DNA of 64,000 bases from NCBI GenBank assembly GCA_016839815.1, contig JAEOTM010000047.1, positions 1 to 64,000 on the forward strand. Direction: 5' to 3'. The stretch's first letter is position 1. Each line of letters begins with the position of its first letter. A model generated the notes under the pieces. It was given only the letters and a program-made list of their open reading frames with translations, did no database searches and had not been told where the DNA came from. Made by a program: the position numbers and the translations under genes. This document shows, piece by piece, positions 1-23,944 of the stretch. Origin of the DNA: Candidatus Hodarchaeota archaeon (GTDB taxonomy: Archaea > Asgardarchaeota > Heimdallarchaeia > Hodarchaeales > Hodarchaeaceae).

Positions 1-334
1 ACCAAGGCTCTAAAACTTCTTGAGTTATCTGAATTCTTCGATCTGCAGCCTCTGCACCAATCTTGGTCATCTTGATATTTTTCCGTTTCCTATCTCCCTG
101 ATAATCATCAGATATCTCTACCCAATTCGCACCTTCCATCTCTTTTAAAATGGGATAGATACGATTTGCTCCAGGTTTCCACCGGCCATTTGTAATTTTT
201 TCGATTTTCTTCATCAATTCGTACCCGTTTTGGGCTTTCTTTTGTTTAAGGAGATGGAGGACGATCAAACGTAAAAATCCTTGCTTCAAACGCGATTCAA
301 AACGGTCTATACGCTCTTTTTCACTCAAAGCCAT
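1..334 (-). CDS. PadR-family transcriptional regulator (3' end runs off the window)
   Basis: Not in the ORF track. Hand translation from ATG at 334 gives MALSEKERIDRFESRLKQGFLRLIVLHLLKQKKAQNGYELMKKIEKITNGRWKPGANRIYPILKEMEGANWVEISDDYQGDRKRKNIKMTKIG..., which fits the PadR wHTH pattern (GYEL, IYPxL, RK..TxxG). Confidence 0.9.
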   Translation of the reverse strand, partial: MALSEKERIDRFESRLKQGFLRLIVLHLLKQKKAQNGYELMKKIEKITNGRWKPGANRIYPILKEMEGANWVEISDDYQGDRKRKNIKMTKIGAEAADRRIQITQEVLEPW

Positions 335-361
335 GTAAAAAACCTTTTATCTAGTGAGTTA

Positions 362-384
362 TATATACCAAATTCAGATATATC
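362..384. promoter_or_regulatory. Putative PadR operator 1 (TATATACC-AAATTCA-GATATATC)
   Basis: Two octamer boxes 15 bp apart, just upstream of the padR start and in the divergent padR/SDR promoter. Confidence 0.75.
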
Positions 385-508
385 AGAAATAAGAAGTGCT
401 TAAAATCTTTATTCAATATATTACAATATGTGTAATTTAGAACTTTCCTCAATGTCAAAATCTTCAATTTGCACATGAACCGAAGGTTATTCTTTTACAA
501 ACAAACTT

Positions 509-1342
509 ATGCTAACAAACGAGATGTATATTCAAATGATGCTAAAAGATGGAACTGTTGCCGTAGTAACAGGTGGAGCTATGGGATTGGGATTATCGAT
601 CGCAAGAGAATTTGGCCAGGCTGGAGCTAATGTTGTCCTGCTAGATATTAATGAAGAAGCACTGAGTTCAAGCGTTACACAGTTAACCAAGGAAGGAAAT
701 TCCATTATTGGATTAGTTTGTGATGTATCAAACAATATGGATGTCCAAAAGACATTTGATGACATAAACCACCGATTTGGTCGAATTGATATTCTCGTAA
801 ACAATGCTGCTATTGCCCCAGAAACTCCTTTCATGCAATGCTCTGAAGAAACCTGGGATAAAATAATGAAGGTGAACTTGAAAGGATATTTTCTCTGTGC
901 GCAAGCTGCAGTTAAACATATGCTGGCGAAGAATATACCTGGCAGAATAGTCAACCTATCATCAATTTTAGGACTTAGACCAAAAGCTCTTCTCATTGCT
1001 TATACCACAACCAAAGGGGCTATTATTAGTTTAACACATTCCATGGCCTCTGAGCTTGGAGAACATGGTATCAGAGTAAATGCCATTGCTCCAGGAATGA
1101 TTGATACACCCATGACCACAAAAGGGTTTACTCCAATGGTAAAGAAGATGATAACTAATAGTATCCCTCTCAAACGATTAGGATCTCCAAGAGAAATTGG
1201 GAAAGCAGCTCTATTTCTATGCTCAGAATATTCTTCTTTTATTAATGGTCATGTTTTGGTTGTTGACGGGGGACAGCATACTGGTATTGTATCACAAAAA
1301 AGAAGCATAGAAAGCAGCGAAAAACCAATGCATGGACTTTGA
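509..1342 (+). CDS. SDR family oxidoreductase (FabG-like)
   Basis: TGGAMGLG, NNAA, catalytic YTTTK, VNAIAPG. Confidence 0.9.
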   Translation: MLTNEMYIQMMLKDGTVAVVTGGAMGLGLSIAREFGQAGANVVLLDINEEALSSSVTQLTKEGNSIIGLVCDVSNNMDVQKTFDDINHRFGRIDILVNNAAIAPETPFMQCSEETWDKIMKVNLKGYFLCAQAAVKHMLAKNIPGRIVNLSSILGLRPKALLIAYTTTKGAIISLTHSMASELGEHGIRVNAIAPGMIDTPMTTKGFTPMVKKMITNSIPLKRLGSPREIGKAALFLCSEYSSFINGHVLVVDGGQHTGIVSQKRSIESSEKPMHGL

Positions 1343-1395
1343 ATATTGTTCTAAAAAAAGAAAAAAATGAAAGAAAAAGAGAATGAAATTTCTCT

Positions 1396-2652
1396 TTAGT
1401 TCTTCTTTCGACGACTAATAACAGCTACTCCGATCAAGGAAATAAGAAGAAAAACTGCTTCAAATCCAGGAGTACCGTCATCTTCAGTTGTAGTTGTAGG
1501 TTCTTCGTCTGTGGTAGTCAATTCAGGTTCAGTTGTAGTTGTATCCGTGGGATCAGAAGTACCGAGAAGTCTAAGTTCGGAAACTGTTCCAAAACCCATC
1601 ATTTGAATCCAGAAGTCTTTAAGATGGAATTCATCAACTAATCCATTTGTTCGATCCCAAAGCATTTTGAGCAGAGGGCCACCCATGGTTGAACCAGATT
1701 GATAACCAAAGTGTGTAGCATTGTTTGTTACTATGTAACCTTTGTAGGTGTAATAAAGTTGAAAATGGTTCCATTCGCGTGATTTAACGTAACCCATGAG
1801 CATTGTTTCATTAGAGCTAACGTCACCGAAAACGAATTTTCCATATACTGAAGTTCCCATGAAGGATGTATTTATTGCAGTGATTTCAATATAGAAAACA
1901 TCACCTTGGGAGATTTGGGAGTCAGGAGCATCTGGATATGAATATGATCCATCAGTAATAGGATTACCCTCTGAATCTTTTAGCATATCCCACTTTAGCC
2001 AAATTTTATCGCCAACAGAAGCGCCATAATCAGTAACAGATTCATATCGCTGGATTAAGATTTCACTAAGTGTACCAAAACCCATCATTTGAATCCACAT
2101 ACCAGTCATTTCCCACTCTAACATGGCACCGTCATTAGCATCCCATTTGAATCGAAGTTCTCCACCCATTAAGGTGGTGTTGTATTGAAAGTAATCTCCT
2201 GGGACATAATCGACTGTATAACCTTTGCCTTCGTAATCATTTTGCCAATAGGTCCAATTGTACTCACTAGAATTCATTGGTTTGAAATAACCTCTAAGGG
2301 TTACATTTGGGGTGGATGATCCATCAGCGAATGAGAAAATACCATATGTATAAGGAGAAGTTTCACCTGAAGTCTGGTTAATGACAGTCATGTTTATCTC
2401 GGTAATATCGAGATAAAAATGATCTCCTTCTGATATATTAGAATCAGGGGCGTCTGGATATGAATAGCTACCATCCAAAATAGGATTTCCTTCACTATCC
2501 TTCACAGATGCCCATACATATTCAAATTGATCCCCAACTTCCACATTATAGTGACCCTCATGGGCAACAGCAGCTAATGCAGTATTATCCCAAGCTAACG
2601 GTACACTTGCTAATAAGAAGCTGAGAATAAGAATTATGTTTCTTTTTTTCAT
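1396..2652 (-). CDS. Cell-anchored protein with two tandem ~160-aa repeats and a PGF-type sorting tail
   Basis: Signal peptide. Duplicated KDSEGNPIxDGSYSYPDAPDS and WIQMMGFGT blocks. Thr/Glu linker, then TPGFE + TM helix + RRKKN. Confidence 0.85.
   Translation of the reverse strand: MKKRNIILILSFLLASVPLAWDNTALAAVAHEGHYNVEVGDQFEYVWASVKDSEGNPILDGSYSYPDAPDSNISEGDHFYLDITEINMTVINQTSGETSPYTYGIFSFADGSSTPNVTLRGYFKPMNSSEYNWTYWQNDYEGKGYTVDYVPGDYFQYNTTLMGGELRFKWDANDGAMLEWEMTGMWIQMMGFGTLSEILIQRYESVTDYGASVGDKIWLKWDMLKDSEGNPITDGSYSYPDAPDSQISQGDVFYIEITAINTSFMGTSVYGKFVFGDVSSNETMLMGYVKSREWNHFQLYYTYKGYIVTNNATHFGYQSGSTMGGPLLKMLWDRTNGLVDEFHLKDFWIQMMGFGTVSELRLLGTSDPTDTTTTEPELTTTDEEPTTTTEDDGTPGFEAVFLLISLIGVAVISRRKKN
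1589..2097. repeat. 23-bp exact direct repeat CCAAAACCCATCATTTGAATCCA (1589-1611 and 2075-2097)
   Basis: Offset is 486 bp (162 codons). It encodes the WIQMMGFG motif of the two protein repeats. Confidence 0.9.
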
Positions 2653-2748
2653 TTAAAAAAACTCACCGTTTTTAATTTATTGAAATCAATTCCTAATTAG
2701 GAAATTAACTCGAGTTGTTAGTTTTTTTATTACAATTAAAAGTGTATT

Positions 2749-2791: not shown

Positions 2792-3136
2792 TCATGATTT
2801 CTGAGTGAAGAAGATATACCCTTTTTTCTTAAGATTCAAAAGAAAAGTAGCTAAACTTGATCGGACATTATCTTTATCTTGGCCTGCGTCTTTGATTAAC
2901 ATTTTTTCTATAACTCTGACGGAGTGTGATCCGTCACATAAATCCCAGACAAATTGACCAATTTCATCAATAACAATCACTTTCTTTTCCCGTTTATGAT
3001 CAATTATGTACTTTTTCCCCGGTTCCCAGTATCCCAGAAAAACATCAGGAAGTTTTTCTGGAAATAAATGATTTAGTTGAACACTATCACTCGGAAAAAC
3101 TGATTTACTTGCTTTATGTTCAGTTTTTCTGTTCAT
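2792..3136 (-). CDS. Stand-alone PqqD-family / RiPP recognition element (RRE) protein
   Basis: VIDEIGQFVWDLCDGSHSVRVI...SLATFLLNLKKKGYI is the typical PqqD wHTH signature. Confidence 0.85.
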   Translation of the reverse strand: MNRKTEHKASKSVFPSDSVQLNHLFPEKLPDVFLGYWEPGKKYIIDHKREKKVIVIDEIGQFVWDLCDGSHSVRVIEKMLIKDAGQDKDNVRSSLATFLLNLKKKGYIFFTQKS

Positions 3137-3285: not shown

Positions 3286-4209
3286 TTAATTCCGTTTTCT
3301 TTTGTAAAAGAGAACCACTAGTACAGTAAATCCAAAGATTGTAAATGGGAATGCGAATCCAGGTGAGCTTTCCTCAACATATTCACCAAGAATGGATATA
3401 GAACCCCATGTCTCTTGATCACTGAAGTTTGCATCCGATGGCCAGTCTATAAAGGGACCTCCTTCAGGATTAGCATCAGGGTCATTTGTTATTGACTCAT
3501 AGAGTGTCATTGATAACCCAACAGTTAAGGGAAGAGTTGGAGCAACAACATCATCAGGAAAACCTGGATTGAAGCTCGTTAAAGGAATTTTAAATGAAAA
3601 CATTTGATGAGGATTGGCTTCGTTCCATGATGATTGAAAGAAACCCCATAGTTGCAATGGAGGGATTAATCCCTGAGGTGGCATGTTGTGACAATAAGAG
3701 ACATCGAATCCATGGACTTCGCCGTCTTCTTCGTTTATACTTGCATTATACAACACTTGTTGACTGAAGTAAACATGACTCTCTCCAAATGTAGTGAAGA
3801 AGTACATATCGGTATTAGAAGTACCTACTTTGTCATGCATCGTATCAAAAGCAATTTGAGCATAATCTAATCGTGTTTGTTCTTGTACATAGATTGAATC
3901 GGCAAGAACGTAAAGGAATGTATTATCGTGTGCGATGTAAACAAATCCACCTTCGAGAGTTCGATTTTCATAATCACTTCCTGCTTCTCCAGGATTCGGG
4001 ATTAGAGAAATCTTTGTTACATCTTCATGTTCCCATTCTGCTTGCTTGATATTTCCAACTGTGATTGAATGATTTATTGGATAAAGGTCGTAATGTGTTA
4101 CCTCTTCTTGTACAACGTCAGTTGTATTAGCAGAAACCGATGGTACACCAACTACAATTACTGATAGTACCAAAATCATAGTAAAAATGAATTTTTTCAT
4201 TTCTTTCAA
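3286..4209 (-). CDS. Cell-anchored DOMON/CBM9-like beta-sandwich protein with PGF-type tail (start may be ATG 4200)
   Basis: Signal peptide. ITVGNIKQAEW...VYIAHDNTFLYV pattern. SPGFA + TM + KRKRN. The domain call is inferred. Confidence 0.65.
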   Translation of the reverse strand: MKEMKKFIFTMILVLSVIVVGVPSVSANTTDVVQEEVTHYDLYPINHSITVGNIKQAEWEHEDVTKISLIPNPGEAGSDYENRTLEGGFVYIAHDNTFLYVLADSIYVQEQTRLDYAQIAFDTMHDKVGTSNTDMYFFTTFGESHVYFSQQVLYNASINEEDGEVHGFDVSYCHNMPPQGLIPPLQLWGFFQSSWNEANPHQMFSFKIPLTSFNPGFPDDVVAPTLPLTVGLSMTLYESITNDPDANPEGGPFIDWPSDANFSDQETWGSISILGEYVEESSPGFAFPFTIFGFTVLVVLFYKRKRN

Positions 4210-4333: not shown

Positions 4334-4356
4334 GATATATCAGGAATTGTTATATA
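4334..4356. promoter_or_regulatory. Putative PadR operator 3 (GATATATC-AGGAATT-GTTATATA)
   Basis: In the divergent promoter between 4209(-) and 4411(+). Nearly identical to the reverse complement of operator 1. Confidence 0.78.
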
Positions 4357-4410: not shown

Positions 4411-5178
4411 TTGACAGAGATGATAATTCATATGAATGTTGACTATTCAAAGATAGAGGAAAACAAAATAGTTATTACGGCTGATAACGAAACAATTACG
4501 TATGTACGAAAGGGTTTGCCACCATCAATTTTTGATTTCTTGATTGATTACCGATTAAGGGCAATTAAAGTAATGGTAGGGGAACAAGAAGATACTGATA
4601 ATGTTTCAGTGACTTCATCAATGTTACATTCACCTCCCATGGCAACAAGAGGATCTCCTGGGTTTTTCCCAGTCAATACCGCAGCAAAGGGAATTGGATT
4701 CATCCCTCAACAAGTCCATTTGGAGAAGTGGGTCGAGAAGTATGATGCTCTAATCAATGAAGCTTTAGAAAAGGGGGAAGATACGAATCGAGAAGCTCGT
4801 TTTGGAGCTCTTCTAGATTTGTATAATTCCAAAAATGAAATTGATCCAAAAAATCTTGGTACAATAGAACTTTTCGGCTTAAGATCTTGGAGAAATATGC
4901 AACAAGATCCTAGAGTGTCAATATTGTACAATGCAAATTATAGAACTAGCTCTGGTCGTCCACAATACATTTCCTTTGAAGTACGAGGGATTGTCGAGAT
5001 AATTCCCAAGGATACTCTCCGCTGGAGATGGCAACGAAATATTCATGATTTGTTTCACCTTCGAGGTGCAAAGGAACGACGAGCTGGTGATTGGCCAGTA
5101 GCAGTATTGAACATCCATGTAACAGAAGTGATTGACAAAAGGCCATTTGGTACTGCAAGTCAGGAGATCCTCGAATGA
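4411..5178 (+). CDS. Pyridoxamine-5'-phosphate-oxidase-like (FMN split-barrel) protein
   Basis: RSWRNMQQDPRVSILY and SFEVRGIVEII resemble split-barrel motifs. Confidence 0.6.
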   Translation: MTEMIIHMNVDYSKIEENKIVITADNETITYVRKGLPPSIFDFLIDYRLRAIKVMVGEQEDTDNVSVTSSMLHSPPMATRGSPGFFPVNTAAKGIGFIPQQVHLEKWVEKYDALINEALEKGEDTNREARFGALLDLYNSKNEIDPKNLGTIELFGLRSWRNMQQDPRVSILYNANYRTSSGRPQYISFEVRGIVEIIPKDTLRWRWQRNIHDLFHLRGAKERRAGDWPVAVLNIHVTEVIDKRPFGTASQEILE

Positions 5179-5219: not shown

Positions 5220-6662
5220 ATGGAAGATCGTCTTTCTGAACTAGTAGACATAGCTATGCAACATAGCTGCAATTATACCGATTGCCGTTTTGTAAAGGAT
5301 GAATATGAACTTATTGAAGCAAAAAATGGATCTCCATCTAGAGTATCTAATTCCAATCGATTTGGAATTGGTATTCGTGTATTATTCAATGGAGCGTGGG
5401 GATTTGCTTCAACTAACAAACTAGAAAAAGTAGCATTACTAAAAAGTTTGGAGACTGCAATTAAAATAGCTAAAGTAACCGCAGAAAATACTAAAGTAAG
5501 GAAAGCCCTCTCTAATGAAAGATCATACGAAGATACCTATACAACCCCTCACAAGATTGACCCATTTTCTATTGACCCAAGTGAAAAAATAGAACCATTA
5601 ACAGAAGGAACAAAGCTACTAGCAGAGCAAGATTCTCGTATACGAAACGCTACTGCTACCTTATTAAGTAGAAAGTATTTTACTGAGCTTACTACCTCTG
5701 AAGGAACCCATATTTTACAATCCTTAATTCAATGTGGCGCTTCACTCACTGGAATGCTTATGGCTGGTCCTGGTGGAATGTCCATTCGAACTAGCGAAAA
5801 CTATAAAGCTCAAGGATATGAATTTATTGATGAGTTTGATCTCGATGAACAGGCTAGTATCGTAGGTAGCGATTTGAAGATCTTAGCTGACAAAGCAGTA
5901 AAAGCACCTTCAGGAACCTATAATCTGATTCTCGAACCATCACATCTAGGTCTAGCAATACACGAAAGCGTTGGTCACCCAACTGAACTTGATCGGGTAC
6001 TTGGTAGAGAAGCAGATTTTGCAGGAACATCATTTCTTACTCCCTCACACCTGAAGGGAGGTTTCAAATACGGTTCAGAACTTGTAAACATTGTACAGGA
6101 TCCTACTTTAACACCAGCCTTAGGAACTTATGCTTATGACGATGATGGTACGAAATCGCGTCGATTATATGTGATAGAAAATGGAGAATTTAATGCATTT
6201 CAAAGTGATCGATCAACAGCCAATGAAATCGGATCATCTCGCTCTAGTGGGAATAATCGAGCTCATGGGCATGATAGACTGCCTATAAATCGCATGGCAA
6301 ACCTTTACTTAGAACCAAACACCAAATATGCTCTTTCTTCTCTGGATGAACTCCTGGAAGAAGCAAAAACAGGAGTTTATGCCCTTTATTCAAGAACTCA
6401 CTCGATTTCACCAAATCGATCCAATTTTCAATTCACAACTCAGATGGGTTATTTGATCGAGGATGGGGAACTTACTACACCATTAAAGAACGTTGTTTAT
6501 GGGAGTCGAACCTTAGATTTCTGGAGGAACTGTCTTGCAACAACTAAGTCGGTCGAAATTTTTGGAACTCCCAATTGTGGGAAAGGAAATCCAGGTCAAA
6601 CTATCTGGACCTCTCATGGGGGTAGTCATACTTTGTTTGGAGACATACGAATAGGTGCGTGA
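5220..6662 (+). CDS. tldD: TldD metalloprotease (pair 1, catalytic subunit)
   Basis: GIGIRV..GAWGFAST, HESVGH, DDDG, RMAN, C-terminal CGKG. Confidence 0.92.
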   Translation: MEDRLSELVDIAMQHSCNYTDCRFVKDEYELIEAKNGSPSRVSNSNRFGIGIRVLFNGAWGFASTNKLEKVALLKSLETAIKIAKVTAENTKVRKALSNERSYEDTYTTPHKIDPFSIDPSEKIEPLTEGTKLLAEQDSRIRNATATLLSRKYFTELTTSEGTHILQSLIQCGASLTGMLMAGPGGMSIRTSENYKAQGYEFIDEFDLDEQASIVGSDLKILADKAVKAPSGTYNLILEPSHLGLAIHESVGHPTELDRVLGREADFAGTSFLTPSHLKGGFKYGSELVNIVQDPTLTPALGTYAYDDDGTKSRRLYVIENGEFNAFQSDRSTANEIGSSRSSGNNRAHGHDRLPINRMANLYLEPNTKYALSSLDELLEEAKTGVYALYSRTHSISPNRSNFQFTTQMGYLIEDGELTTPLKNVVYGSRTLDFWRNCLATTKSVEIFGTPNCGKGNPGQTIWTSHGGSHTLFGDIRIGA

Positions 6663-8058
6663 TCAGATGAAAGATAAATTAGTCTCAAAAGAAGCGAATG
6701 AGCTTGCACAAGATATTATTAGTATTGGATTAGAACAAGGTGCTTCAGAGTTTCAGGTAAAGATTCGTGACACTTACGCAATTTATATTCGATTTGCCAA
6801 CTCAGAAATTCATCAATTCTCTACGGAAAATATTCGTGAAATTAAGCTAGTAGCTCTAATTGGTAAGAAAAAAGGATTATCTCTCGTCGTACCCACAACA
6901 GATGAAGATCTAATAAGGTCAATTAATTATCTAGTTTCTGCTACCAAGGTAAATTCAGAAGATCCAGATCAGTTATCTTTTTACTCATCAGGAAAGGAGT
7001 ATCAAGATTTAAAATTAGTAGATGAATCATTTAAATCTTGGGATCAGGAGTATATGGCTAAAATTGTTTCCAATGTAATCCAAACAGCACATCAAGTTGA
7101 TGACAGGGTTAAAAATGTCAGTGGAATGTTACAAGCAATGAACCATCAGATATTCTTGGTGAATAGTCAAGAATTAGCCCTTAAAACTAATCAAACTGAA
7201 TATTGGTACGGTGTCGATGTTCTTGCTAAAAAAGGAGGAAAATCTGGTAGAAACTCCCAAGGAGAGACAAATCGTTTCGCTAAGAATATTCCATTTAACG
7301 AACTTGCTGAAACTGCTGCAAAATATGCTATTCTGGGAATTAATCCAGTAAAGCTTGAACCAGGAGATTATCCTGCCATTTTAGATTATTATGCTGTTCT
7401 TGAACCAATTGTATTCGTCAATCTTGGGCTTAGTGGACTATTTGTCAAACAACACAGAAGCTTTCTTGCTCGAAAAATGGGAAAAAAAATATTTTCTGAA
7501 AAATTCAATTTAAAACATTCTCCTTTCTTATCATCACTGGTAACTTCGAAAGCGTTTGATGATGAAGGAATTCCAACACAAGAATTCTATTTCATTAAAG
7601 AAGGAGTCTTAGAATCACTCGCTCATAACAGATTGACAGCCTCTCAGATGGAGAAAGAGCCTAATGGATGTGGTTATGAGTCAGAACGGACATCATTTGG
7701 TATTCCGACAGCTACGCTTCTTGAACCTTCGGAAGAGATAGGTATGGAAGATTTGATACGAGAAATGGACCGTGGAATTTTAATCTCTAGATTATACTAT
7801 TCCAATTGGGCTAATCCTATGGCAGGAATTTTAACAGGTACCACAAGAAACGGATTCTTTAAAGTTGAATCAGGAGAAATAACTACCGCTCTGCATCCTA
7901 TGAGACATAGTACGTCTATTTTTGAAATGTTTGGTGAGGGAATAAGATTAGCTAACAAGGTTCACCAACCACCAATGCAAATGATGCCTGGGGTACAATC
8001 CATTATGGTTCCTGCTTTAATGTCTTCTAAAATGCATATGACTACATATTCAAACTAG
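6655..8058 (+). CDS. pmbA: TldE/PmbA subunit (pair 1)
   Basis: RFANSEI, FDDEG, TGTTRNG. Lacks HExxxH. Overlaps the tldD stop. Confidence 0.88.
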   Translation: MRDQMKDKLVSKEANELAQDIISIGLEQGASEFQVKIRDTYAIYIRFANSEIHQFSTENIREIKLVALIGKKKGLSLVVPTTDEDLIRSINYLVSATKVNSEDPDQLSFYSSGKEYQDLKLVDESFKSWDQEYMAKIVSNVIQTAHQVDDRVKNVSGMLQAMNHQIFLVNSQELALKTNQTEYWYGVDVLAKKGGKSGRNSQGETNRFAKNIPFNELAETAAKYAILGINPVKLEPGDYPAILDYYAVLEPIVFVNLGLSGLFVKQHRSFLARKMGKKIFSEKFNLKHSPFLSSLVTSKAFDDEGIPTQEFYFIKEGVLESLAHNRLTASQMEKEPNGCGYESERTSFGIPTATLLEPSEEIGMEDLIREMDRGILISRLYYSNWANPMAGILTGTTRNGFFKVESGEITTALHPMRHSTSIFEMFGEGIRLANKVHQPPMQMMPGVQSIMVPALMSSKMHMTTYSN

Positions 8059-9329: not shown

Positions 9330-9332
9330 TTC

Positions 9333-11218: not shown

Positions 11219-11256
11219 GATATATTGGATTTTGATATATCGGTGTTTGATATTTA
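11219..11256. promoter_or_regulatory. Putative PadR operator 4, triple box (GATATATT-N7-GATATATC-N7-GATATTTA)
   Basis: Three octamers at 11219, 11234 and 11249, upstream of the ABC operon. Confidence 0.8.
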
Positions 11257-14220: not shown

Positions 14221-16413
14221 TTATGTCTTGGGTTTTCGTAGATAACCAAGATTCTTTCTTCTGGTGAGTAAGGAATATATAATTATGACGATTACAATCA
14301 CTGCTATCCCAAGTACAATTGCTATAATTGCTCCAGGATCGAACGCGAAATAGAGGTTAATAAATACATCTACTGCTGTTATCACACCAACTCCAGTTAA
14401 TGCACCGGCTCCAATTGGCATACCTATGTCCATGAAGCCCTCGACTCCTTTACTTCGAATAAATACTATTCTAATTAATCCACCAATACCCATGGTGACA
14501 ATTAAGAACGGTGGCATTGCTGTACCAATACCTACACCTATAGGATTTATAGGAGCAAACCCTAATGGAATTCGAATTAAGACAAGAATAACACCGATAA
14601 GAGCACCTAATAATAATGGTAAAATTTTGAAAACCTCTAAGCTCCCTGATAAAAAGGCAAGAGAGGTCTCAATTCCGGGATCCCATGCTTGAGTGGGTAA
14701 TTTCTCTGATCTAAGTCCATAAGCACTCCAAAGAAATAATGCTACAAAAGGACCAATGAGCATAGGAATCCCACGTCTTATAAATTCACTTGCTCCTACC
14801 TTCCAGAATGTTAAATTGATCTGTTCAGCCATAACACAATGAGCAATATACCCACAACCAGATTGTTGTGCGGAAAACGTAACACCACCTATTGAATATG
14901 CAGGATAATTCATACGAATTCCCGATAGGAAAATTGTCAAATCGAACAATTGTGGAGAGGGGGCCATACCCATTCCCATTGTACCGAGAGATCTTGTAAT
15001 CATCAAGTTTGATAGAAGCGGAAAAATCGTCACTAGAAAAAGTACTACAATAATCCACAGAGGATCGAAATAATCTGATAAAACGATCCATATTATCCCG
15101 TATACAATTCCTACCCCAAAGAAAACTAGTAAGCTGGTAGTTAATGGTAATTCCCCTTGTTTTGATATAGATCGCATCTTTTTCAGATCTCTTAAAGAAG
15201 CGACTAATAATTTACTAGAAAGTAGTAGGGGAAGCATTGAACCAACAAAAATGATTGCTGCTGAGAATGAAATTCCCCAAATGCTTTGAGATTCTCCCCA
15301 AAGTGCCATTATTGCTCCCTTAGAACCCCCTTCACTCGTATACTTCAGAAATGGCCATAAACCTTCAAAGTTTATTCCTTCAGCAAACCAGGAAAGATCT
15401 GCATACTTGCCATAAGGATTAAATCCAATTGTCCACATAATTGCTAACATAGGCATAATTACTAAAGAGAAGGTCAGGGCACCCAAAAGAGCTCCAAAGG
15501 AAACCTCTTTTGGTACTAAAAAGCCTAGGATTAAGAAAAAGGCGTTAAAGCTAACAGCAAAGAATGCACCTTTTAATAGTGGATGAATATTCCATAATTC
15601 TTCTGTGAAAAAGATACTTGTTTCAATAATCCCGCCCCGTGAACCTGGATCATCCACAGGTAATGCAGGATTCAAAAAAGGAAGCCAATCTAGAATAGAT
15701 CGAATCGGTTCAATTTTGGTTATATTATACATCAAATCGGGCATATTTACATCAAGAGTATTTGGAATGTACAGTATCGTCATTACAATTGTAGCACCAA
15801 GAAGTCCTCTTACGAAATATTTGAATCGATAATCCATTTTACCAGAGGCTAGATTCTGGACTGTTTCCGCTTTTAGGGAATGGATTGGCCATGGCATGAC
15901 TTCTAATTCCATATAGTATTTTCTAAGAATAAACCCAAATCCTAAACCACTTAAGATACCAATTTGGTAGAGAAGGAAGAAAAATATTATAGGATAAAGC
16001 CATTCAACAGCAATAGGTATTCTATCCGCAATTATACCTGAATTTATATCAGGCAACATCCACCATGGTAAGGTTATTCCTGCATCGATTATTTTCTCGT
16101 GAGTAGCAAACTGAATCCAATATACAACTGATGAGGCGGACAAAGCAGGTGTTGCAGCTAAGACTAATCCTAATTCTTGTTTTGTGGCTTTTTCTCCAGT
16201 CCATGCAAAATACCTAGAGATTATTAATCCCGCAACAAACATGAAGGCCCAACCACTGAAGATACCAGTAGTCATATCTGCATAAGTGGCTGCGAATGAG
16301 AAAAAACCGCCTAAGACGGTCATGGCAAGAATTACTCGTAGTGACATTTCCCGTTTTTTGTTAACATTTACTGCTGAGGCCTTTAGAACCTCTTCTGCAT
16401 TATAATCACTCAT
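14221..16413 (-). CDS. OPT/YSL-superfamily oligopeptide transporter
   Basis: About 730 aa, highly polytopic. N-terminal SLRVILA, TKQEL, MPWP, C-terminal GVGIG..PP motif. Confidence 0.75.
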   Translation of the reverse strand: MSDYNAEEVLKASAVNVNKKREMSLRVILAMTVLGGFFSFAATYADMTTGIFSGWAFMFVAGLIISRYFAWTGEKATKQELGLVLAATPALSASSVVYWIQFATHEKIIDAGITLPWWMLPDINSGIIADRIPIAVEWLYPIIFFFLLYQIGILSGLGFGFILRKYYMELEVMPWPIHSLKAETVQNLASGKMDYRFKYFVRGLLGATIVMTILYIPNTLDVNMPDLMYNITKIEPIRSILDWLPFLNPALPVDDPGSRGGIIETSIFFTEELWNIHPLLKGAFFAVSFNAFFLILGFLVPKEVSFGALLGALTFSLVIMPMLAIMWTIGFNPYGKYADLSWFAEGINFEGLWPFLKYTSEGGSKGAIMALWGESQSIWGISFSAAIIFVGSMLPLLLSSKLLVASLRDLKKMRSISKQGELPLTTSLLVFFGVGIVYGIIWIVLSDYFDPLWIIVVLFLVTIFPLLSNLMITRSLGTMGMGMAPSPQLFDLTIFLSGIRMNYPAYSIGGVTFSAQQSGCGYIAHCVMAEQINLTFWKVGASEFIRRGIPMLIGPFVALFLWSAYGLRSEKLPTQAWDPGIETSLAFLSGSLEVFKILPLLLGALIGVILVLIRIPLGFAPINPIGVGIGTAMPPFLIVTMGIGGLIRIVFIRSKGVEGFMDIGMPIGAGALTGVGVITAVDVFINLYFAFDPGAIIAIVLGIAVIVIVIIIYSLLTRRKNLGYLRKPKT

Positions 16414-16607: not shown

Positions 16608-16630
16608 GATATGTCCGAATCTGATATATC
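16608..16630. promoter_or_regulatory. Putative PadR operator 5 (GATATGTC-CGAATCT-GATATATC)
   Basis: 15-bp period, mid-way in the divergent OPT/FtsX promoter. Confidence 0.75.
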
Positions 16631-16806: not shown

Positions 16807-18546
16807 ATGGTTAATTTCCAGAAGAGCATTGAAACTATGTTAGGTTCCACTGCTGGGTTTATGTTAAATATAAGTGTACGGAATCTTTCACGTCAGCGTA
16901 GAAATACCATTCTTACAATACTAACAATATTTGTTGCTATGTTTAGTTTCTTGCTCTCTGTTTCAATTGTATCTAGTGCTTCAATCAGTGTTCAGGAGTA
17001 CACTGCTACTAGTTCAGGAGAAGGACTAGTAATACATGATTATGGTAATTTCCTTTACCAAGAAGATCTTGACCAATTAAAGACAATCTCATCCATAACG
17101 ACGAGTATCCCACGGATTCGCTTGATTGGCCGATTAGCATATAACCAGCTCACAATAAAAAACAACTCAGATGTCCTTCGTTCCATCTTGTATCCTTTTG
17201 CTAGTAATTTTTCACTGGAGAATGAACTTTCAAATTTGTCAGAGGTTTTAAGTTCGGGGGTGTTACCTAAAGCTGGAAATGACATATGTATTTCTGACAA
17301 CTTAGCTACAGATTTAGAACTGCAACCTGGGGATCAAGTAGCTATTCAAACAGTAGGTTACAATATTTCTGGAATTATAGATTCTTCTGCTCTATTCACA
17401 TTTACAGACTTTACTGGTAACTGGGTTCTCCCAGAAGATGTTGAATCTGGGACTCATCAACCAATTCCGAGTACTAACGTAGCATTCGTGCCCTTCCAAT
17501 TACTCTGGCAAATACTGCCTACAATAAATGAAGCCCTTATTGCGAATAATGCTTATAATGAAATTCAAGTGAGCTTAGAACCTGATGCTGAGACTTTTGA
17601 CTTAATTGAGCAATTACTTCCTATAGAAGTTGATCAAACAAAAGAAATTACCGTTATCGAGGGATTTAATCAGTTTAAATATCAGGTTGAGACCCAAATC
17701 TCAGTACGTGGATTCACCTTTATGATCTTCGTATTAATCATCGCAGGTTTAATTATATTAAATACACTACTAGGGGCAATTACTGCTCGAATGAAGGACA
17801 TTGAAGTTTGGTCTAGTGTAGGAGCGAATCCTAGTCACATTAAGTATAATTTCATGTTTGAAAGTATGATCTTTGGTGCTATTGGTGGAACTCTAGGCTA
17901 TATTGCTGCAATTATGTTTTCACTCACTGGTATACTACTTGGATTTCAAACCAGTATTACTCCCGATAAATATGACTTTAACTGGCTATTCTTAACCGTC
18001 TTAGTAGCAGTTATATTGAGTCTACTCTCCGCAATTTATCCTTCAAGAAAAGCCTCAACAGCGGTTGTTCCTAGTTTGAAAAGATCCTGGAAACCAGGAC
18101 TAGGGGAGATGTTAACTCAGCAATACACATTCGATGAAGAAGAAATTCCGATCACACTTGAACCACAAGATTTTGAAGATTATGCATCTTATATTCAGAC
18201 AAGGATGGATATTCCGACTTTTTTCAAGGTAAAGCGGAAATGGCCCGTTCAAGTTCAGAGTCTTGAAAATGATCAAGTAAAGAGATCATTCAAACTGGAT
18301 GTCGCTGTTTTTTCCGCGGAAGGAACTTACGCCTTAATTTCCATATGGAGTATAGAGGAACCTGATATACATACAATGAAAGTATATGCACAGGTTAACC
18401 CTTATTCCTCATTTGGAGAAAGTTCAGGATGGGCACAAAGTAGCACGAATTTTAACAAAGCTGCGTTTGATGTTCTCAATATGCTTAGACAATTATCACT
18501 TAAATGGCGTGTGGAAGGTAGAAAATTCGTTATTGAGCGCGAATAA
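16807..18546 (+). CDS. FtsX/MacB-like ABC permease with extracellular domain and C-terminal cytoplasmic extension
   Basis: RNLSRQRRNTILT, RMKDIEVWSSVGANP, IYPSRKAS...VPS. Confidence 0.85.
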   Translation: MVNFQKSIETMLGSTAGFMLNISVRNLSRQRRNTILTILTIFVAMFSFLLSVSIVSSASISVQEYTATSSGEGLVIHDYGNFLYQEDLDQLKTISSITTSIPRIRLIGRLAYNQLTIKNNSDVLRSILYPFASNFSLENELSNLSEVLSSGVLPKAGNDICISDNLATDLELQPGDQVAIQTVGYNISGIIDSSALFTFTDFTGNWVLPEDVESGTHQPIPSTNVAFVPFQLLWQILPTINEALIANNAYNEIQVSLEPDAETFDLIEQLLPIEVDQTKEITVIEGFNQFKYQVETQISVRGFTFMIFVLIIAGLIILNTLLGAITARMKDIEVWSSVGANPSHIKYNFMFESMIFGAIGGTLGYIAAIMFSLTGILLGFQTSITPDKYDFNWLFLTVLVAVILSLLSAIYPSRKASTAVVPSLKRSWKPGLGEMLTQQYTFDEEEIPITLEPQDFEDYASYIQTRMDIPTFFKVKRKWPVQVQSLENDQVKRSFKLDVAVFSAEGTYALISIWSIEEPDIHTMKVYAQVNPYSSFGESSGWAQSSTNFNKAAFDVLNMLRQLSLKWRVEGRKFVIERE

Positions 18547-18579: not shown

Positions 18580-20034
18580 ATGGAAATCACAAATGATTAC
18601 TCTGAGCTGATGGACTATGCAATATCCATTTTAAATCAGAGAAATGTAAATTATGGAGATGTTAGATATACAAAACACCTCGAACTCAAATTAATTGCTC
18701 GTGATTCAAGAATCGCAGAGATTACGAGAAGCTCCGAGACAGGGATTGGTATTCGTGTTCAATCAGAAAAAGGGGCTCCACTTGCTTTTGTATCTACAAG
18801 CAATGTCTCTCAAGAGTCTTTACGGCATATAATTGATGAAGCCTATCAAAGCAGTCTTACTCTTTCTCACCTGTCTTCAAACGGTTCCACTCATCTTGCA
18901 GATCAACCACTAATAACACGAAATCTTGTTCATACATCTAAAGATTCAATATTTACCTCTGATATAACCGATGTCAAAGATTATGCGTTATCTCATGTAA
19001 ATGAAATTAAGGAAAACGATGTTTCATCCGCAAGTTGTGGATTGGCAGGTATCATTTCTTATAAACACATCATGACTACAGAAGGTACTGATGCAACTTT
19101 CTTAGTGGATGGAGTTGGATATAAAGGTGATGCAACAATTAGAAAGATGGGTCAGTTCCAAACTTATGCAGATCGGAAAGGAGGAACTTTTGGGTTAAAA
19201 GATCTATATTCGCTTTTAGATGATGGAAACCTAGCTCAAGAGATAGGAAAAACTGTTAGTATGATGGTCAAAGGTAAACCTATTGATTCAGGACAGTTTG
19301 ATGTGATTATTGATCCTGCATTCGCAGGTCTTCTCGCTCATGAATCCTTCGGTCACATGACGGAAGCTGATGCAGTAACAACACGCGCTTCAGCTCTTAC
19401 TGATCGTTTAGGTGAACGATTAGCACCAGATTTTGTGTCTATTGTTGACGATCCTACCTATAACCACGGTGCATGGAATTTTCTTGATGATGAAGGAGTT
19501 ATCGGAAAACGGAATATCATCTTAAACAAAGGGATTCTTGAAAACTACATGTCCGATCGAAGAAATGCCTACAAATTAGACACCGCAAGTACTGGAAATA
19601 GTCGAGCTTCTGATTATGGATATCCGCCAATTGTAAGGATGACAAATACCTGTTTCCTTCCCCACGATCATTCACTCGACGAAATGGTCGAGGACGTGAA
19701 AGATGGACTATTTTTGAAAGGACATGCTGGAGGAGAATCAGGAACTACTGGTAAATTCTCCTTTAGAAGTCAAGTCGGGTTTCTAATAAAAAATGGAGAA
19801 ATCGGTAGTGTGATTTCTAGTGTCACCCTTAATGGAAACATTCTTGATTACTTGAAAAAGATCGATGCGGTTGGACGGGAGTTCTCCTTAGAAGTCGATT
19901 GTGGCTTTGGAGGATGTGGAAAAGGAGGACAAAGAGCACTAGTGGGCTTAGGAGGAACATATATTCGATTCAGAGATGTTTCGGTAACTTCGATATCCAA
20001 ACCGAAGATGCCAATGATGGGGATGATGAAATGA
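18580..20034 (+). CDS. tldD: TldD metalloprotease (pair 3)
   Basis: GIGIRV, HESFGH, DDEG, RMTNT, CGKGGQ. Confidence 0.92.
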   Translation: MEITNDYSELMDYAISILNQRNVNYGDVRYTKHLELKLIARDSRIAEITRSSETGIGIRVQSEKGAPLAFVSTSNVSQESLRHIIDEAYQSSLTLSHLSSNGSTHLADQPLITRNLVHTSKDSIFTSDITDVKDYALSHVNEIKENDVSSASCGLAGIISYKHIMTTEGTDATFLVDGVGYKGDATIRKMGQFQTYADRKGGTFGLKDLYSLLDDGNLAQEIGKTVSMMVKGKPIDSGQFDVIIDPAFAGLLAHESFGHMTEADAVTTRASALTDRLGERLAPDFVSIVDDPTYNHGAWNFLDDEGVIGKRNIILNKGILENYMSDRRNAYKLDTASTGNSRASDYGYPPIVRMTNTCFLPHDHSLDEMVEDVKDGLFLKGHAGGESGTTGKFSFRSQVGFLIKNGEIGSVISSVTLNGNILDYLKKIDAVGREFSLEVDCGFGGCGKGGQRALVGLGGTYIRFRDVSVTSISKPKMPMMGMMK

Positions 20035-21443
20035 GTGATACTAACAATTTATCACGAATCACGGAGAAATTAGTACAATATGGGTTAGCCAATGGTGCTG
20101 ATGAAACTGAAATATTCGGTGTTAATGAAAAACGTACTTCTATCAGCCACAATGGAGAATCTGTTGTTACCAATTCAAATGTAACAGCTGGTCTTGGAAT
20201 CCGAGTAGCTATCGGTAAGAAATGGGCTTTTACCTCATCCTCTTCTCTCGATTTAACTAGTGCTCAAACAGAGATTAATGAGGCAATCAAGATAGCACGT
20301 ATACGGGAAGAAGACCCTGATTTCGCTGGATTTCCTATAGGAGGGAATATTGCTCCATTCAAGCCAGATCTTAAAGATTTAAACAACATTCAGATCGATA
20401 AGATAATCTCTTCACTTATAGATGCACGCAAAAAGGCACTTGATCTAGATAGAAATCTTAGTAATGTCCAAGGCTCTTTTCAATTTATTATTGGAGAACG
20501 AGCGATTTCTAATTCTTCTGGATTGGATTATTCTTATGATCGCGGTAGCTACTCTGCTAGTTTTTCTGCAGTGGGTTCATATGGAGAAAATCGGTTCTCT
20601 GAAAACTCTTTTACTGGAGGAACCAAACTTGATTATGACTTTGACAACCTTGCTTTAGACGCAGCCCAAAGAACAGTCGATATGTTTCAAAAGAGTGAAT
20701 CTGTTGGGGAAGGATCCATGGAAGTATTAATGGAACCTTTTGCTGCTGCCATCTTCTTCATTGGTATTAGCAGATTAATGTTTAAAGGAAATATGGCTTT
20801 AACAAATAGAAGTATCTTAACCTTAAATGATATTGGAACTCAGGTTGGATCAAAAGCATTAACATTTATTGATGATGGTCTTTTAGAGGGAGGAATAAAA
20901 GCGGCCCCCATTGATGATGAAGGTACACCAAGTTCTACAACTCCTCTAATTAAAGAGGGGGTTCTGAAGAATTTTCTTTATGATCATTCTAGTGCAAAGA
21001 AAGCAAGTGCAAAACCCACAGGGAATGCCATGAGAGGGATTGGTCACGGTGCTAGATCTTATACTGCTTTACCAACAATTGGAGCCCGTGATAGAGTAAT
21101 TCAAGCGGGACCTAAATCTCAAGCTAATCTTGTTTCTCAAATTGATAAAGGAATACTGATTGGGTATCCTGCAGGAATCTTCCTAGGAAATCCTATGACA
21201 ACTGATTTTACCATATTTCCCACACGTGTTCTTAAAATTCAGAACGGTGAAATCTTGGGTCCTGTTACCGGAATCTCAATGGCTGGAAATGGTCTGCAAT
21301 GGTTAAAGAATATCAATTCCATTGGCAATGATTCAAAGATGATGGAATCTGTAGTATCCCCTTCAGTTCTGTTTTCGAATATTGCTGTTAATACCAGTCG
21401 AAAAAGAAAAACAGCTAAATCCATGCCTCCTATGATGGGTTAA
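20031..21443 (+). CDS. pmbA: TldE/PmbA subunit (pair 3); start revised to ATG 20031
   Basis: ATGA overlap with the tldD stop. GLGIRV, DDEG, PTGNA. Confidence 0.88.
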   Translation: MSDTNNLSRITEKLVQYGLANGADETEIFGVNEKRTSISHNGESVVTNSNVTAGLGIRVAIGKKWAFTSSSSLDLTSAQTEINEAIKIARIREEDPDFAGFPIGGNIAPFKPDLKDLNNIQIDKIISSLIDARKKALDLDRNLSNVQGSFQFIIGERAISNSSGLDYSYDRGSYSASFSAVGSYGENRFSENSFTGGTKLDYDFDNLALDAAQRTVDMFQKSESVGEGSMEVLMEPFAAAIFFIGISRLMFKGNMALTNRSILTLNDIGTQVGSKALTFIDDGLLEGGIKAAPIDDEGTPSSTTPLIKEGVLKNFLYDHSSAKKASAKPTGNAMRGIGHGARSYTALPTIGARDRVIQAGPKSQANLVSQIDKGILIGYPAGIFLGNPMTTDFTIFPTRVLKIQNGEILGPVTGISMAGNGLQWLKNINSIGNDSKMMESVVSPSVLFSNIAVNTSRKRKTAKSMPPMMG

Positions 21444-21474
21444 GAATTATTTCACAAATACTTAGTGATTTACA

Positions 21475-22692
21475 TTGACGAGTCTAATTACAGAAATAAT
21501 AAGTCACGTCTGGTCATCAAAAGAGTTACTTTCTCCAATTTTTCACTTATGTGACAAAATTGGGCCACGTCCATCTGGTTCCAGAGCAGCTGACAACGCA
21601 GCAAACTTCATTCGATCGAAATTTGATGATTCCCAACTCACAACCTCTATTCACGAATTTTCCCACGGTTCTTGGACAGCAGAGAAGCATTTCCTTGCTA
21701 TTGATAATCAAGAATTCCCTTCAACCCCATTTAATCTTTCAGGAAATGGTCAGCTATCTGGTGAATGCTTTTATCTTCCTAATCCCTCAAAAGAAGCCTT
21801 TGAACACGCTCATTTTGAGGGAAAAATCCTTCTAGCTGAAGCGGTACATGGAATGGGAATGCATCGAACTGAAATTCTTAAAAGAGCTGTTGAAGGTGGG
21901 GCACTTGCTTATATCCAGATCTCTAAAATTCCTGGAGGGATTGTTGAAACAGGTAACATTTCTACAAAAGGAGTTGCTAACATTCCTGCCCTTTGTATTT
22001 CCTATGAAACAGGTCATTTTCTAAGAAGAAAAATCCAGCAAGGAGATGGACGAGTAACTTTAAGTGTAAAAGGATCAGAATTTGAAGTTAAGGGCAAAAA
22101 TGTGATTGGAAATATTGACAGTGGATCAGACGATACTATCATCATAGGAGCTCATTATGATACTTGGGAAAATGGTCCTGGGGCGTTTGATAATGGTACT
22201 GGAATAGCAACCTTGCTAGAGCTATCTAAAACTTTGTCCAAACTACAACAGTCAGGTGTAAATTTTCAATTTATTGCCTTTAGTGCAGAGGAATTAGGTT
22301 TTAAAGGATCGATGGCCTATAAAAAAGAGGTAATTGAGTCGAACAAACTTCAAATTCCAATAATGATGAACCTTGACTGCACAGCTTATCCGAAGGGGCA
22401 AAGAACTTTATCTGTTTCAAATTCTGAAGAAGATTTTGCCATTATAAATCAATTAATTAATTCTTATAATTTCAATTCTGTACTCAACACTCGACCTCCA
22501 TTTGGTACGGATGGATTTCCTTTTTATCTATCTAAAATTCCAGTAGTAAGCTTAGAACAGATAGATAGAACAAAACCTTCGTTTATGCATACTCCATTCG
22601 ATACCCCTGAAAAATTAACTGAGAATTCTTTGAAAAATTCCACAGCAATTGCAGGAGCAATATTAGGAACATTAGTCCAAAAATATCAATAG
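21475..22692 (+). CDS. M28 family metallopeptidase with PA domain
   Basis: GAHYD, GAFDNGTG, AEELG, NLDC, GTD, MHTPFD. No signal peptide. Confidence 0.88.
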   Translation: MTSLITEIISHVWSSKELLSPIFHLCDKIGPRPSGSRAADNAANFIRSKFDDSQLTTSIHEFSHGSWTAEKHFLAIDNQEFPSTPFNLSGNGQLSGECFYLPNPSKEAFEHAHFEGKILLAEAVHGMGMHRTEILKRAVEGGALAYIQISKIPGGIVETGNISTKGVANIPALCISYETGHFLRRKIQQGDGRVTLSVKGSEFEVKGKNVIGNIDSGSDDTIIIGAHYDTWENGPGAFDNGTGIATLLELSKTLSKLQQSGVNFQFIAFSAEELGFKGSMAYKKEVIESNKLQIPIMMNLDCTAYPKGQRTLSVSNSEEDFAIINQLINSYNFNSVLNTRPPFGTDGFPFYLSKIPVVSLEQIDRTKPSFMHTPFDTPEKLTENSLKNSTAIAGAILGTLVQKYQ

Positions 22693-22696
22693 ACAC

Positions 22697-23944
22697 GTGA
22701 ATGTTATGAGAGAACCTATTGGCGATATTATTGGGAATATCTGGAGTTCTACGGATATTTCAAATAATTTAAACTACATCTGTGACACATTTGGGCCACG
22801 ACCAGCAGGAAGTGAATCAGCAGATTTAGCTGGGGATTATATTAAGAATAAACTTGATGAATATGGATTAGATACGCATAAACATCAGTTTGAACATGCA
22901 TACTGGGAAAAAGAAAAAGCGGAGTTCTATCTTGACAATAACAAACTGCATGCTATTCCATTTCACTTTTCTAAGTCAGAGGAGCTTACAGGGGATTGTT
23001 TCATATTAAAAACTCCTTCAGAGAAATCCTTTGAAAAAGCGAATTTCCAAGGAAAGATCCTCCTCGTAACACCAACTAAGCAACGTCATGGTGGAATGAG
23101 TAGGAAGGAAATGTTCAGACGAGCTGTTGAAGGAGGAGCTATTGGTTTTATTCAAATGTCAAGTATTATGGGAGGAGTTCTAGAAACAGGAAGTATAGGT
23201 AATGACTTTACTGAAATTCCTGCATTTTCCTGTTCATTTGAGAATGGAAGGTTAATCGAACGATTGCAGAATAAAGGAAAAGGGAAAATTTCTCTCTCAA
23301 TTCAAGGAAAAAAAGTGAAAAAATCTTCATATAATATAATCGGGGATATAAAAGGGAGTTCAGATAACATGGTTATATCTGGGGCTCATTATGATACCTG
23401 GGATATCGGCCCAGGTGCTTTTGATAATGGTACTGGTGTTTCGACTGTTTTAGCATTAGCAGAGGTATATAGTAAATCGACAGTCAAAGATAAATTCGAT
23501 GATACATTACGATTCATCTTCTTTTCTGGTGAGGAATTAGGAATTCTTGGATCTGAAGCCTACACAAAGGATTATATTGATACAGATAGAACCCCAAAAG
23601 TATCACTCATGTGTAATTATGATTGCACGAACATTAAGGGTGGTGTGAGAGGTGCATTTACTTCTAATAGTATGTCAATGCATAAAAGTATCGTTAATTT
23701 TGTTGAATCGCGAGGATTCGATATTAAGATGAGTTTACGTCCACCCCATGGAACAGATGCAATTCATTTTTCAAATCGGAAAATACCGACATTCGGATTA
23801 GCCCAATTTACCGCTCCCAGTTATATGCACACGGCATTTGATACTCCAGATAAGATAGACATCTCTGAATTGAAAAATTCAACCGCAATTGCAGGTGCGA
23901 TATTAGCTGATCTACTTATCACAGGAAAAATGAAAAACGTTTAA
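22697..23944 (+). CDS. M28 family metallopeptidase with PA domain, tandem paralog
   Basis: GAHYD, GAFDNGTG, GEELG, NYDC, GTD, MHTAFD. Confidence 0.88.
   Translation: MNVMREPIGDIIGNIWSSTDISNNLNYICDTFGPRPAGSESADLAGDYIKNKLDEYGLDTHKHQFEHAYWEKEKAEFYLDNNKLHAIPFHFSKSEELTGDCFILKTPSEKSFEKANFQGKILLVTPTKQRHGGMSRKEMFRRAVEGGAIGFIQMSSIMGGVLETGSIGNDFTEIPAFSCSFENGRLIERLQNKGKGKISLSIQGKKVKKSSYNIIGDIKGSSDNMVISGAHYDTWDIGPGAFDNGTGVSTVLALAEVYSKSTVKDKFDDTLRFIFFSGEELGILGSEAYTKDYIDTDRTPKVSLMCNYDCTNIKGGVRGAFTSNSMSMHKSIVNFVESRGFDIKMSLRPPHGTDAIHFSNRKIPTFGLAQFTAPSYMHTAFDTPDKIDISELKNSTAIAGAILADLLITGKMKNV

Follow-up and report, generated by a model that had tools for sequence, protein, structure and literature searches.

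A PadR-linked peptidase and transport locus of a Hodarchaeales archaeon with a possible role in the use of modified peptides

The window described here is a stretch of 64 kb that starts at base 1 of contig C101 in the genome of a Candidatus Hodarchaeota archaeon (G000; 4.24 Mb, 89.5% complete). Its first 24 kb hold a block of genes for a PadR-family regulator, a short-chain dehydrogenase/reductase (SDR), two anchored surface proteins, a stand-alone PqqD/RRE-like protein (RRE, recognition element of peptides that are made on ribosomes and modified after translation, or RiPPs), a split-barrel protein, three TldD/TldE pairs, a CbiX-like chelatase, two ATP-binding cassette (ABC) ATPases, two FtsX permeases, a Cys4 protein, an OPT-like permease and two PA-M28 peptidases. 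The original prediction had taken these genes, from the DNA alone, to form one contiguous, inducible unit at 1–23944. Pfam profile searches and inspection of the translations located every one of the named components there; the system does not, however, end at position 1.

The padR gene is represented by its 5′ part (2–334, minus strand; PF03551, E = 7e-14), the contig start truncating a gene whose orthologues encode 125–152 residues; PadR has no sequence match in the PDB. Upstream of padR, in the promoter region that it shares with the divergent SDR gene (509–1342, plus strand; profile match), a motif search gives operator 1 (362–384), which consists of two GATATATC palindromes with a 15 bp period, GATATATC-N7-GATATATC. 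The same motif is found at 2749–2771 (operator 2, ahead of surface protein 1), at 4334–4356 (operator 3, in the divergent promoter of surface protein 2 and the split barrel, and present in all relatives checked), at 11219–11256 (operator 4, three half-sites with the motif at 11219/11234, ahead of the operon of Cys4, mini-FtsX and ATPase genes) and at 16608–16630 (operator 5, in the divergent promoter of the OPT-like and large FtsX permeases), so that both the motif and its occurrence at five promoter regions are as predicted. With up to two mismatches, six of the ten sites in the genome fall in 1–24 kb, where other spacings give 0–1 sites; the associated binomial p of ∼7e-12 is circular, because the motif was discovered in these 24 kb. 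An independent check comes from five other genomes, in which the motif is kept at the orthologous promoters, as expected of a co-regulated unit, and whole-genome pattern searches show it to be concentrated in the block. A seventh site lies on contig C155 of the same genome, and in three genomes a set of tandem split barrels has its own operator. Extra operator-like sites in genomes G005 and G019 are mostly intragenic and added no new member of the regulon. In G019 a good operator-like site (L210:7185) separates two divergent regulators and has another small split barrel and an FAD oxidoreductase nearby.

PadR orthologues that are 54–71% identical occur in five genomes, while padR is absent from two others, G002 and G013, with a 38-codon remnant left in G013. 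These two genomes share deletions of 32 and 40 bp that remove operators 2 and 5. In G019, two units (PhlACB-like genes with the SDR, and the tandem barrels) have been relocated to the right end of the locus and have retained their operators. PadR is probably the regulator of the block, and likely to be a repressor. As the loss of PadR and the operator deletions are one event, and two operators persist, the loss lineage supports this control and does not prove it.

The three TldD/TldE pairs that had been reported are all present by profile match: TldD1 and TldE1 (5220–6662 and 6655–8058, plus strand), TldE2 and TldD2 (11267–12664 and 12684–14069, minus strand), and TldD3 and TldE3 (18580–20034 and 20034–21443, plus strand; the start of TldE3 is most likely to be near 20034, as in the orthologues). 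Escherichia coli TldD binds its metal through an HExxxH motif and a distal cysteine (PMC5810440), and TldD1 (HESVGH and CGKG) and TldD3 (HESFGH and CGKG) have both. The second pair does not conform: TldD2 reads HELIH or HELCH in all orthologues, that is HExxH and not HExxxH, with the distal cysteine kept. It is the longest branch of the TldD tree, and TldE2 is fast-evolving (38–59% identity). Each TldE adjoins its TldD and lacks the metal motif. TldD1, TldD2 and TldD3 are deep, separate lineages, distinct also from the four other pairs of G000, which rules out a recent triplication; G000 has seven pairs in total. Compared with E. coli TldD/TldE of the microcin B17 system (the best PDB match, entry 5nj5, E = 3e-30), the adjacent genes and the motifs of TldD1 and TldD3 are alike, whereas the block has three unrelated pairs in one regulon, the HExxH motif of TldD2 and neither a YcaO nor a precursor. 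The PA-M28 peptidases a (21475–22692) and b (22697–23944), both on the plus strand, have all of their Zn ligands intact (H, D, EE, D and H). Neither has a signal peptide or a transmembrane (TM) segment and they are therefore cytoplasmic; indeed, all of the hydrolases of the block are cytoplasmic peptidases.

Four genes of the transport module lie together on the minus strand behind operator 4: ABC ATPase 1 (8589–9329; MacB/LolD type), ABC ATPase 2 (9333–10091; 85–95% identity, which ranks it with the best-conserved genes of the block), both assigned by profile match, a mini-FtsX permease (10111–10740; 203 residues, four TM segments and no ectodomain) and the Cys4 protein (10715–11101). The RRE-like protein (2792–3136, minus strand) matches PF05402 (E = 2e-8; 34.9 bits against a cutoff of 23.4). 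The OPT-like permease (14221–16413, minus strand; ∼13 predicted TM segments, 76–91% conserved) scores 21 bits with PF03169, below the cutoff of 25.8, and one orthologue carries PF03169; there is no PDB sequence match, and this OPT subfamily occurs solely at these loci. The large FtsX permease (16807–18546, plus strand; 579 residues) has a MacB_PCD ectodomain and the homologous cytoplasmic tail that is common to the module, and it is without the giant M28-like ectodomain that its paralogues, of 1501–1643 residues, have. The MacB/LolD-type ATPase and the four-TM permease with an ectodomain place the system among the type VII ABC transporters. It shares with MacB, LolCDE, FtsEX, BceAB and HrtBA the ATPase type, the four-TM FtsX permeases and one MacB ectodomain, and differs from them in the second permease without an ectodomain, the extra cytoplasmic tail, the Cys4, RRE and OPT-like partners, and the import that we propose below.

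Three further copies of the module occur in G000 (on contigs C85, C104 and C60; loci L020, L021 and L022), two of them with their own RRE, and these adjoin genes for GH13, GH57, amylo-1,6-glucosidase and GH2 enzymes and for anchored surface proteins. A fourth giant FtsX stands alone (G000:C36:25075–28836). The copies elsewhere in G000 are thus paired with glycosidases and the block with peptidases. DUF6785 is found in G000 only on C85 and C104, and not in the block. With the M28-FtsX/DUF6785/OPT/RRE form of the module the block has in common the Cys4–mini-FtsX–ATPase–ATPase operon, the RRE, an OPT-like protein and the homologous FtsX tail; it differs in having separate anchored proteins and its own PadR regulon and in lacking both the giant pseudo-M28 ectodomain and DUF6785, and it is not a canonical copy of that module. 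The Cys4 protein, which marks the module across Asgard archaea, Bathyarchaeia and Thermoprotei, was found at 80 loci in Bathyarchaeia, Thermoprotei, Brockarchaeota and Asgard archaea, usually with the ATPase and often with mini-FtsX; the closest loci are named Heimdallarchaeota B3_Heim and Ca. Hodarchaeum mangrovi. Cys4 genes also occur apart from the rest of the module, heading a ribosomal-protein operon in Thermoprotei and lying between the thermosome and EF-2 genes in Brockarchaeota/Nitrososphaerota. The RRE, Cys4, mini-FtsX, ATPases, FtsX tail and OPT are a general archaeal and bacterial membrane module. Because its other copies in G000 lie in starch or glycan loci, the RRE is no specific clue to RiPPs, and the earlier phrase 'catabolic use of RiPP-type parts' is not supported as it was framed. 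A structure prediction of the RRE with the membrane-plus-tail half of FtsX scored 0.00 and was not used as evidence.

Both surface proteins carry Heimdall-CTERM/PGF-CTERM anchors and are candidate capture proteins. Surface protein 1 (1396–2652, minus strand) is built of ∼170-residue repeats, each with an invariant methionine-rich motif, W.QMMGFGT; there are two repeats in G000 and four in G005 (L037:1581–3872). Surface protein 2 (3286–4209, minus strand) resembles CBM9/DOMON domains, a likeness that serves as a lead only; it has an invariant CHNMPP motif and several histidines, and no PDB sequence match. The split-barrel protein (4411–5178, plus strand) belongs to an uncharacterized PNPOx-like family and is predicted to bind flavin mononucleotide (FMN) or haem. 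Its AF2 model has a pLDDT of 94.8, structure searches confirm the fold, and the conserved residues R41, H66, K86, E146, N155 and H209 include a histidine pair and an FMN-like site. In the fold search, haem barrels and flavin barrels score equally well (Z = 9.5–10.8). The closest relatives of the barrel are on short or uninformative contigs, and family f11 (probably Thorarchaeia) shares no neighbours with it among the matches listed. Surface protein 2 and the split barrel had no relatives in two metagenome scans. Genes for a CydA-like membrane protein, a USP-PCP_red fusion, an ABC exporter and a split barrel of this family form a conserved and apparently unstudied cluster (L127–L129 and L163–L170) that several Asgard genomes share with other prokaryotes, and to which cytochromes c and a PCP_red radical SAM protein are sometimes added. 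The CbiX/SirB-like class II chelatase (8083–8592, plus strand; PF01903) keeps both metal-binding histidines, has a helical insertion and is the sole CbiX in G000.

As position 1 is the contig end, the left flank was read from relatives. In GCA_054387795 and G005 padR is followed by a gene like that for hydroxymethylglutaryl-CoA synthase (HMGS), a thiolase-like gene, a DUF35 gene, a gene for a 110-residue membrane protein and a split major facilitator superfamily (MFS) transporter. A ferritin-like protein, recognized by eye from its sequence and with no Pfam match, comes after the split MFS in G005, G019 and G000. Contig C155 of G000 has the same left-side genes, cut off at the beginning of the thiolase gene, and additionally encodes three 370-residue proteins and a third M28 behind one operator; in G002 the genes of C155 type directly adjoin surface protein 1. 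By this synteny C155 is very probably the left neighbour of the window, across a join that is not assembled, and the full locus very probably measures ∼35 kb and extends left beyond position 1. The 370-residue proteins adopt the split-barrel fold, each in two halves that resemble one another, and were found in four of 301 Asgard genomes, all of them carriers of the block; profile comparison between single and tandem barrels is weak (probability 5%), though both fold as split barrels. The third M28 (L019:3086–4336), which has tandem split barrels on either side, lacks the EE pair and the last histidine and, judged by its sequence, is a conserved cytoplasmic PA-M28 that is catalytically dead.

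The best PDB match of the HMGS-like protein is PhlA (E = 1e-72) and that of the thiolase-like protein is PhlC (E = 4e-42), in each case ahead of archaeal HMGS or thiolase. The HMGS-like subunit has lost its catalytic cysteine, which is a signature of repurposed acyltransferases (PMC12960953), the thiolase-like subunit has its cysteine and a GH motif, and DUF35 is present. We rejected a mevalonate complex for these genes in view of the lost cysteine and the closer match to PhlA and PhlC. The PhlA-like gene is absent from the G000 assembly, where it probably falls in the gap between C155 and C101, and was found in neither the G002 nor the G013 assembly. The subunit features, the A–C–B order and the MFS gene that follows are as in the Friedel-Crafts acylases PhlACB of Pseudomonas and MucABC of Streptococcus (PMC6392133 and PMC12960953), for which an aromatic or tetramate acceptor of C-acylation comes from a PKS or NRPS encoded alongside. 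The genes, which lie left of the window (on C155 and in relatives), differ in being archaeal, in being co-regulated with peptidases and in having no polyketide synthase (PKS) or nonribosomal peptide synthetase (NRPS); neither was seen near them or in the extended locus.

The block is syntenic in G002, G013, G005 and G019 and on two NCBI contigs (37–92% identity), giving five to six relatives with the block, all in the genus except for one possible outlier. Gene order and operators are kept at 50–80% protein identity. The same five of the 22 genomes of the genus have orthologues of OPT, the split barrel and surface protein 1, and among 400 Asgard genomes five have them. The OPT subfamily comprises seven clusters, one of which is labelled Odinarchaeota; the 72%-identical OPT in this metagenome-assembled genome (P0183) reflects either transfer of the block or mis-binning. 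The whole gene set does not co-occur broadly in archaea and bacteria and is confined to one clade. In G019 and GCA_976602785 the position of the SDR is taken by a creatininase/MftE-like amidohydrolase (133 bits on the MftE model against a cutoff of 172), which was found only in two near-identical genomes; in G019 it adjoins padR, and the SDR is kept beside PhlA. In GCA_054387795 unrelated genes break the block after TldE1 (L033:13813–20717), with the OPT orthologue on the same 86 kb contig. A literature search, outside which most subscription papers lay, found no paper on the system, the gene combination, DUF6785 or the module.

No YcaO is encoded in the G000 assembly, no radical SAM motif is present in the block, no maturase was found within or flanking the block in six genomes, and the small open reading frames of the block, which were listed, include no convincing precursor. 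The predicted absence of a RiPP-modifying enzyme is borne out. An ordinary RiPP cluster with its maturase to the left of the window was considered and discarded, since the DNA there, as seen in relatives and on C155, holds the PhlACB-like flank, tandem split barrels and the dead M28. The locus is not a RiPP cluster. The further members of the full regulon, a PhlACB-like acyltransferase, as many as three split barrels in tandem, the dead M28, the split MFS, the ferritin-like protein and, in some genomes, the creatininase, point to chemistry on a non-peptide group and not just to the cutting of peptides.

This is a real, regulated and uncharacterized system built on a widespread transport module. 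On balance, and with moderate confidence, we favour a PadR-repressed locus, laid out like a polysaccharide-utilization locus (PUL), that imports and catabolizes peptides carrying a bulky non-peptide adduct. The judgement in the original prediction that catabolism is likelier than biosynthesis agrees with this. Bacteroidota Sus-type PULs likewise combine a regulator, surface binders, a transporter and cargo-specific hydrolases in one inducible locus; the block differs in having no SusC/D, in its FtsX/OPT transporter, in its archaeal host and in having peptidases as the hydrolases, and from this layout of capture, uptake and cytoplasmic breakdown under one repressor the cargo would be a peptide. 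The module beside glycoside hydrolases and anchored proteins elsewhere in G000 also fits import combined with cargo-specific hydrolases. Hodarchaeales in culture depend on peptides, and free amino acids do not support their growth (bioRxiv 10.1101/2025.02.26.640444).

The model takes gene content, motifs, operators and conservation as its observations, from which we infer complex formation, import, the order of the steps and the cargo. The two anchored surface proteins would capture the cargo, and the OPT-like permease would bring it inwards, coupled to a heteromeric type VII ABC motor made up of the large FtsX, mini-FtsX and the two ATPases, with Cys4 and the RRE as putative cytoplasmic subunits. 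TldD/E admits unfolded N-termini to a narrow channel, and a bulky modification blocks entry and stops trimming, as in the modified microcin precursor (PMC5810440), which suits the stripping of peptide from an adduct. The three pairs, that of TldD2 with less certainty, would thus trim the unstructured peptide from its N-terminus until the adduct blocks the channel (PMC5810440). The two cytoplasmic M28 peptidases, with their intact residues, would turn the released short peptides into amino acids. Four split barrels, the SDR, the PhlACB-like C-acyltransferase and the CbiX-like chelatase may process the leftover group, with the ferritin-like protein and the split MFS handling metal or waste, and the adduct or its product would release PadR from the six or seven operators. 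Several points weigh against this reading. The type VII ABC systems whose function is known are exporters or extractors and, to our knowledge, none is proven to import. TldD/E genes lie within 10 kb at just three of 76 non-orthologous Cys4 loci and CbiX at none, and the split barrels and surface proteins are likewise found at none of these 76. The loss of PadR and operators is a single event that left two operators in G002 and G013, the join between C155 and the window comes from synteny and not from assembly, and the characterized PhlACB-type complexes are biosynthetic (PMC12960953).

Should the model hold, haem-c or other tetrapyrrole peptides have slightly less than an even chance of being the cargo and other peptides that bear a ring or are acylated (modified RiPPs, siderophores or cofactor peptides) slightly more; taken over all readings, a modified peptide other than a haem or tetrapyrrole peptide is a possible but doubtful answer. 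The leading named candidate, a little more tentative still, is that haem-c peptides (fragments of cytochrome c) or other tetrapyrroles from outside the cell are salvaged or catabolized. Surface protein 2, which is DOMON-like and has the invariant Cys-His-x-Met, would bind haem, TldD/E and M28 would strip the peptide, the split barrels would hold or reduce the ring, CbiX would move the metal and the ferritin-like protein would store it; more speculatively, the SDR and the PhlACB-like complex could remove a 1-hydroxyethyl or acetyl side chain. No HemB was found in 21 of the 22 genomes of the genus, and neither HemC nor ferrochelatase in those tested, yet G000 has COX1, Ccm and a seven-haem cytochrome (G000:C189:58359–59768), which together suggest haem auxotrophy and leave CbiX without a home-made tetrapyrrole substrate. 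Each carrier has one CbiX, that of the block, and strong CbiX matches among the 22 genomes occur solely in carriers. The best Foldseek matches of both barrel types are haem binders, and cytochrome c/CydA-like/PCP_red clusters contain members of a distant clade of the barrel family. However, haem and flavin barrels tie, the conserved residues resemble the FMN site of PNPOx, and the haem-linked clade is only ∼25–30% identical and separate in the tree. The CbiX relatives (45–49%) adjoin peptidases or acyl-CoA ligases and not tetrapyrrole genes, and G000 encodes a FecCD-type importer. COX1 was discarded as a marker of the block, being present also in six of the 17 genomes without it; the auxotrophy is genus-wide and its link to the block is therefore unproven. 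Haem-utilization operons (hutWXZ, chu and hup) resemble the locus in their split barrels and in the need for external haem, but the block has no HutW/ChuW radical SAM, HutX or HmuTUV, and is not a known haem operon. That a haem-auxotrophic Asgard archaeon harvests covalent haem from cytochrome c fragments, with an ATP-driven FtsX/OPT machine for their import, TldD/E to strip the peptide and the PhlACB-like complex run backwards to deacylate the ring, is as a complete pathway rather unlikely.

The remaining explanations account for parts of the same evidence. Peptidases, with six TldD/E subunits and two intact M28s, dominate the block, Hodarchaeales are peptidotrophic (bioRxiv 10.1101/2025.02.26.640444), and G002 and G013 retain the core after losing PadR, the SDR and, as far as their assemblies go, PhlA; ordinary oligopeptides could then be the food, with three pairs widening the specificity and the redox and acyl enzymes as passengers. 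We think this unlikely, as G000 has four other TldD/E pairs, just five of 22 congeners have the block, the split barrel and CbiX are in the TldD1/TldE1 operon, and the tandem barrels have an operator of their own in three genomes. MacB/BceAB-type systems serve resistance, and the distribution of the block is patchy, so PadR might sense a peptide antibiotic or aromatic toxin that ABC/FtsX extracts and the enzymes degrade or (de)acylate; short PadRs such as LftR control resistance transporters (PMC6457526). Surface proteins dedicated to capture, together with an OPT-like permease, suit uptake, the degradative enzymes are cytoplasmic and the paralogous modules are in glycan loci, and a role in resistance seems improbable. 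A metabolite or cofactor derived from a peptide might be made and exported, by the logic of pyrroloquinoline quinone (PQQ) or mycofactocin, with the RRE, TldD/E, the MftE-like amidohydrolase, the SDR, flavoenzymes and the acyltransferase. Such clusters share with the block an RRE, proteases, an SDR and, in some genomes, an MftE-like amidohydrolase, and the PhlACB-like complex and MFS are in phl-like order; yet the block has neither a radical SAM enzyme (MftC/PqqE) nor a precursor, no radical SAM, PKS, NRPS or conserved precursor was seen in the extended locus and no YcaO in the genome, the creatininase is that of just two near-identical genomes and the RRE is part of the transport module. We rate this, too, as improbable. 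If unrelated genes had come together by chance in a variable region, this would explain why the block is found in one clade only, with varying accessory genes and one insertion after TldE1; such an origin is largely refuted by the shared operator that is nearly confined to the block, by the joint loss of PadR and two operators, by units that relocated together with their operators and by the conserved synteny, and is scarcely credible.

Further along the window, four features were noted by eye from the sequence or its translation: a RuBisCO-like gene of archaeal form III (41844–43154), a stand-alone DNA methyltransferase-like gene (43344–44387), a tandem pair of paralogous genes with a repeated motif (57266–58704) and a 4-hydroxybutyryl-CoA dehydratase/HpaB-like gene (61853–63307).

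While the full locus is limited to one clade, it is unusually testable, with a defined regulator and operator, a lineage that has naturally lost the regulation, and soluble candidate capture proteins and enzymes. It places RREs and TldD/E outside RiPP biosynthesis, which is relevant to RRE-based genome mining, and adds an archaeal, non-PKS context for PhlACB-like enzymes. The host is a sediment archaeon from the peptide-dependent order closest to eukaryotes. Naming the cargo would indicate whether a type VII ABC system can drive import and, if the haem pathway were true, this would be the first cargo assigned to a transporter that is widespread, and would add a new way in which haem is recycled in sediments.

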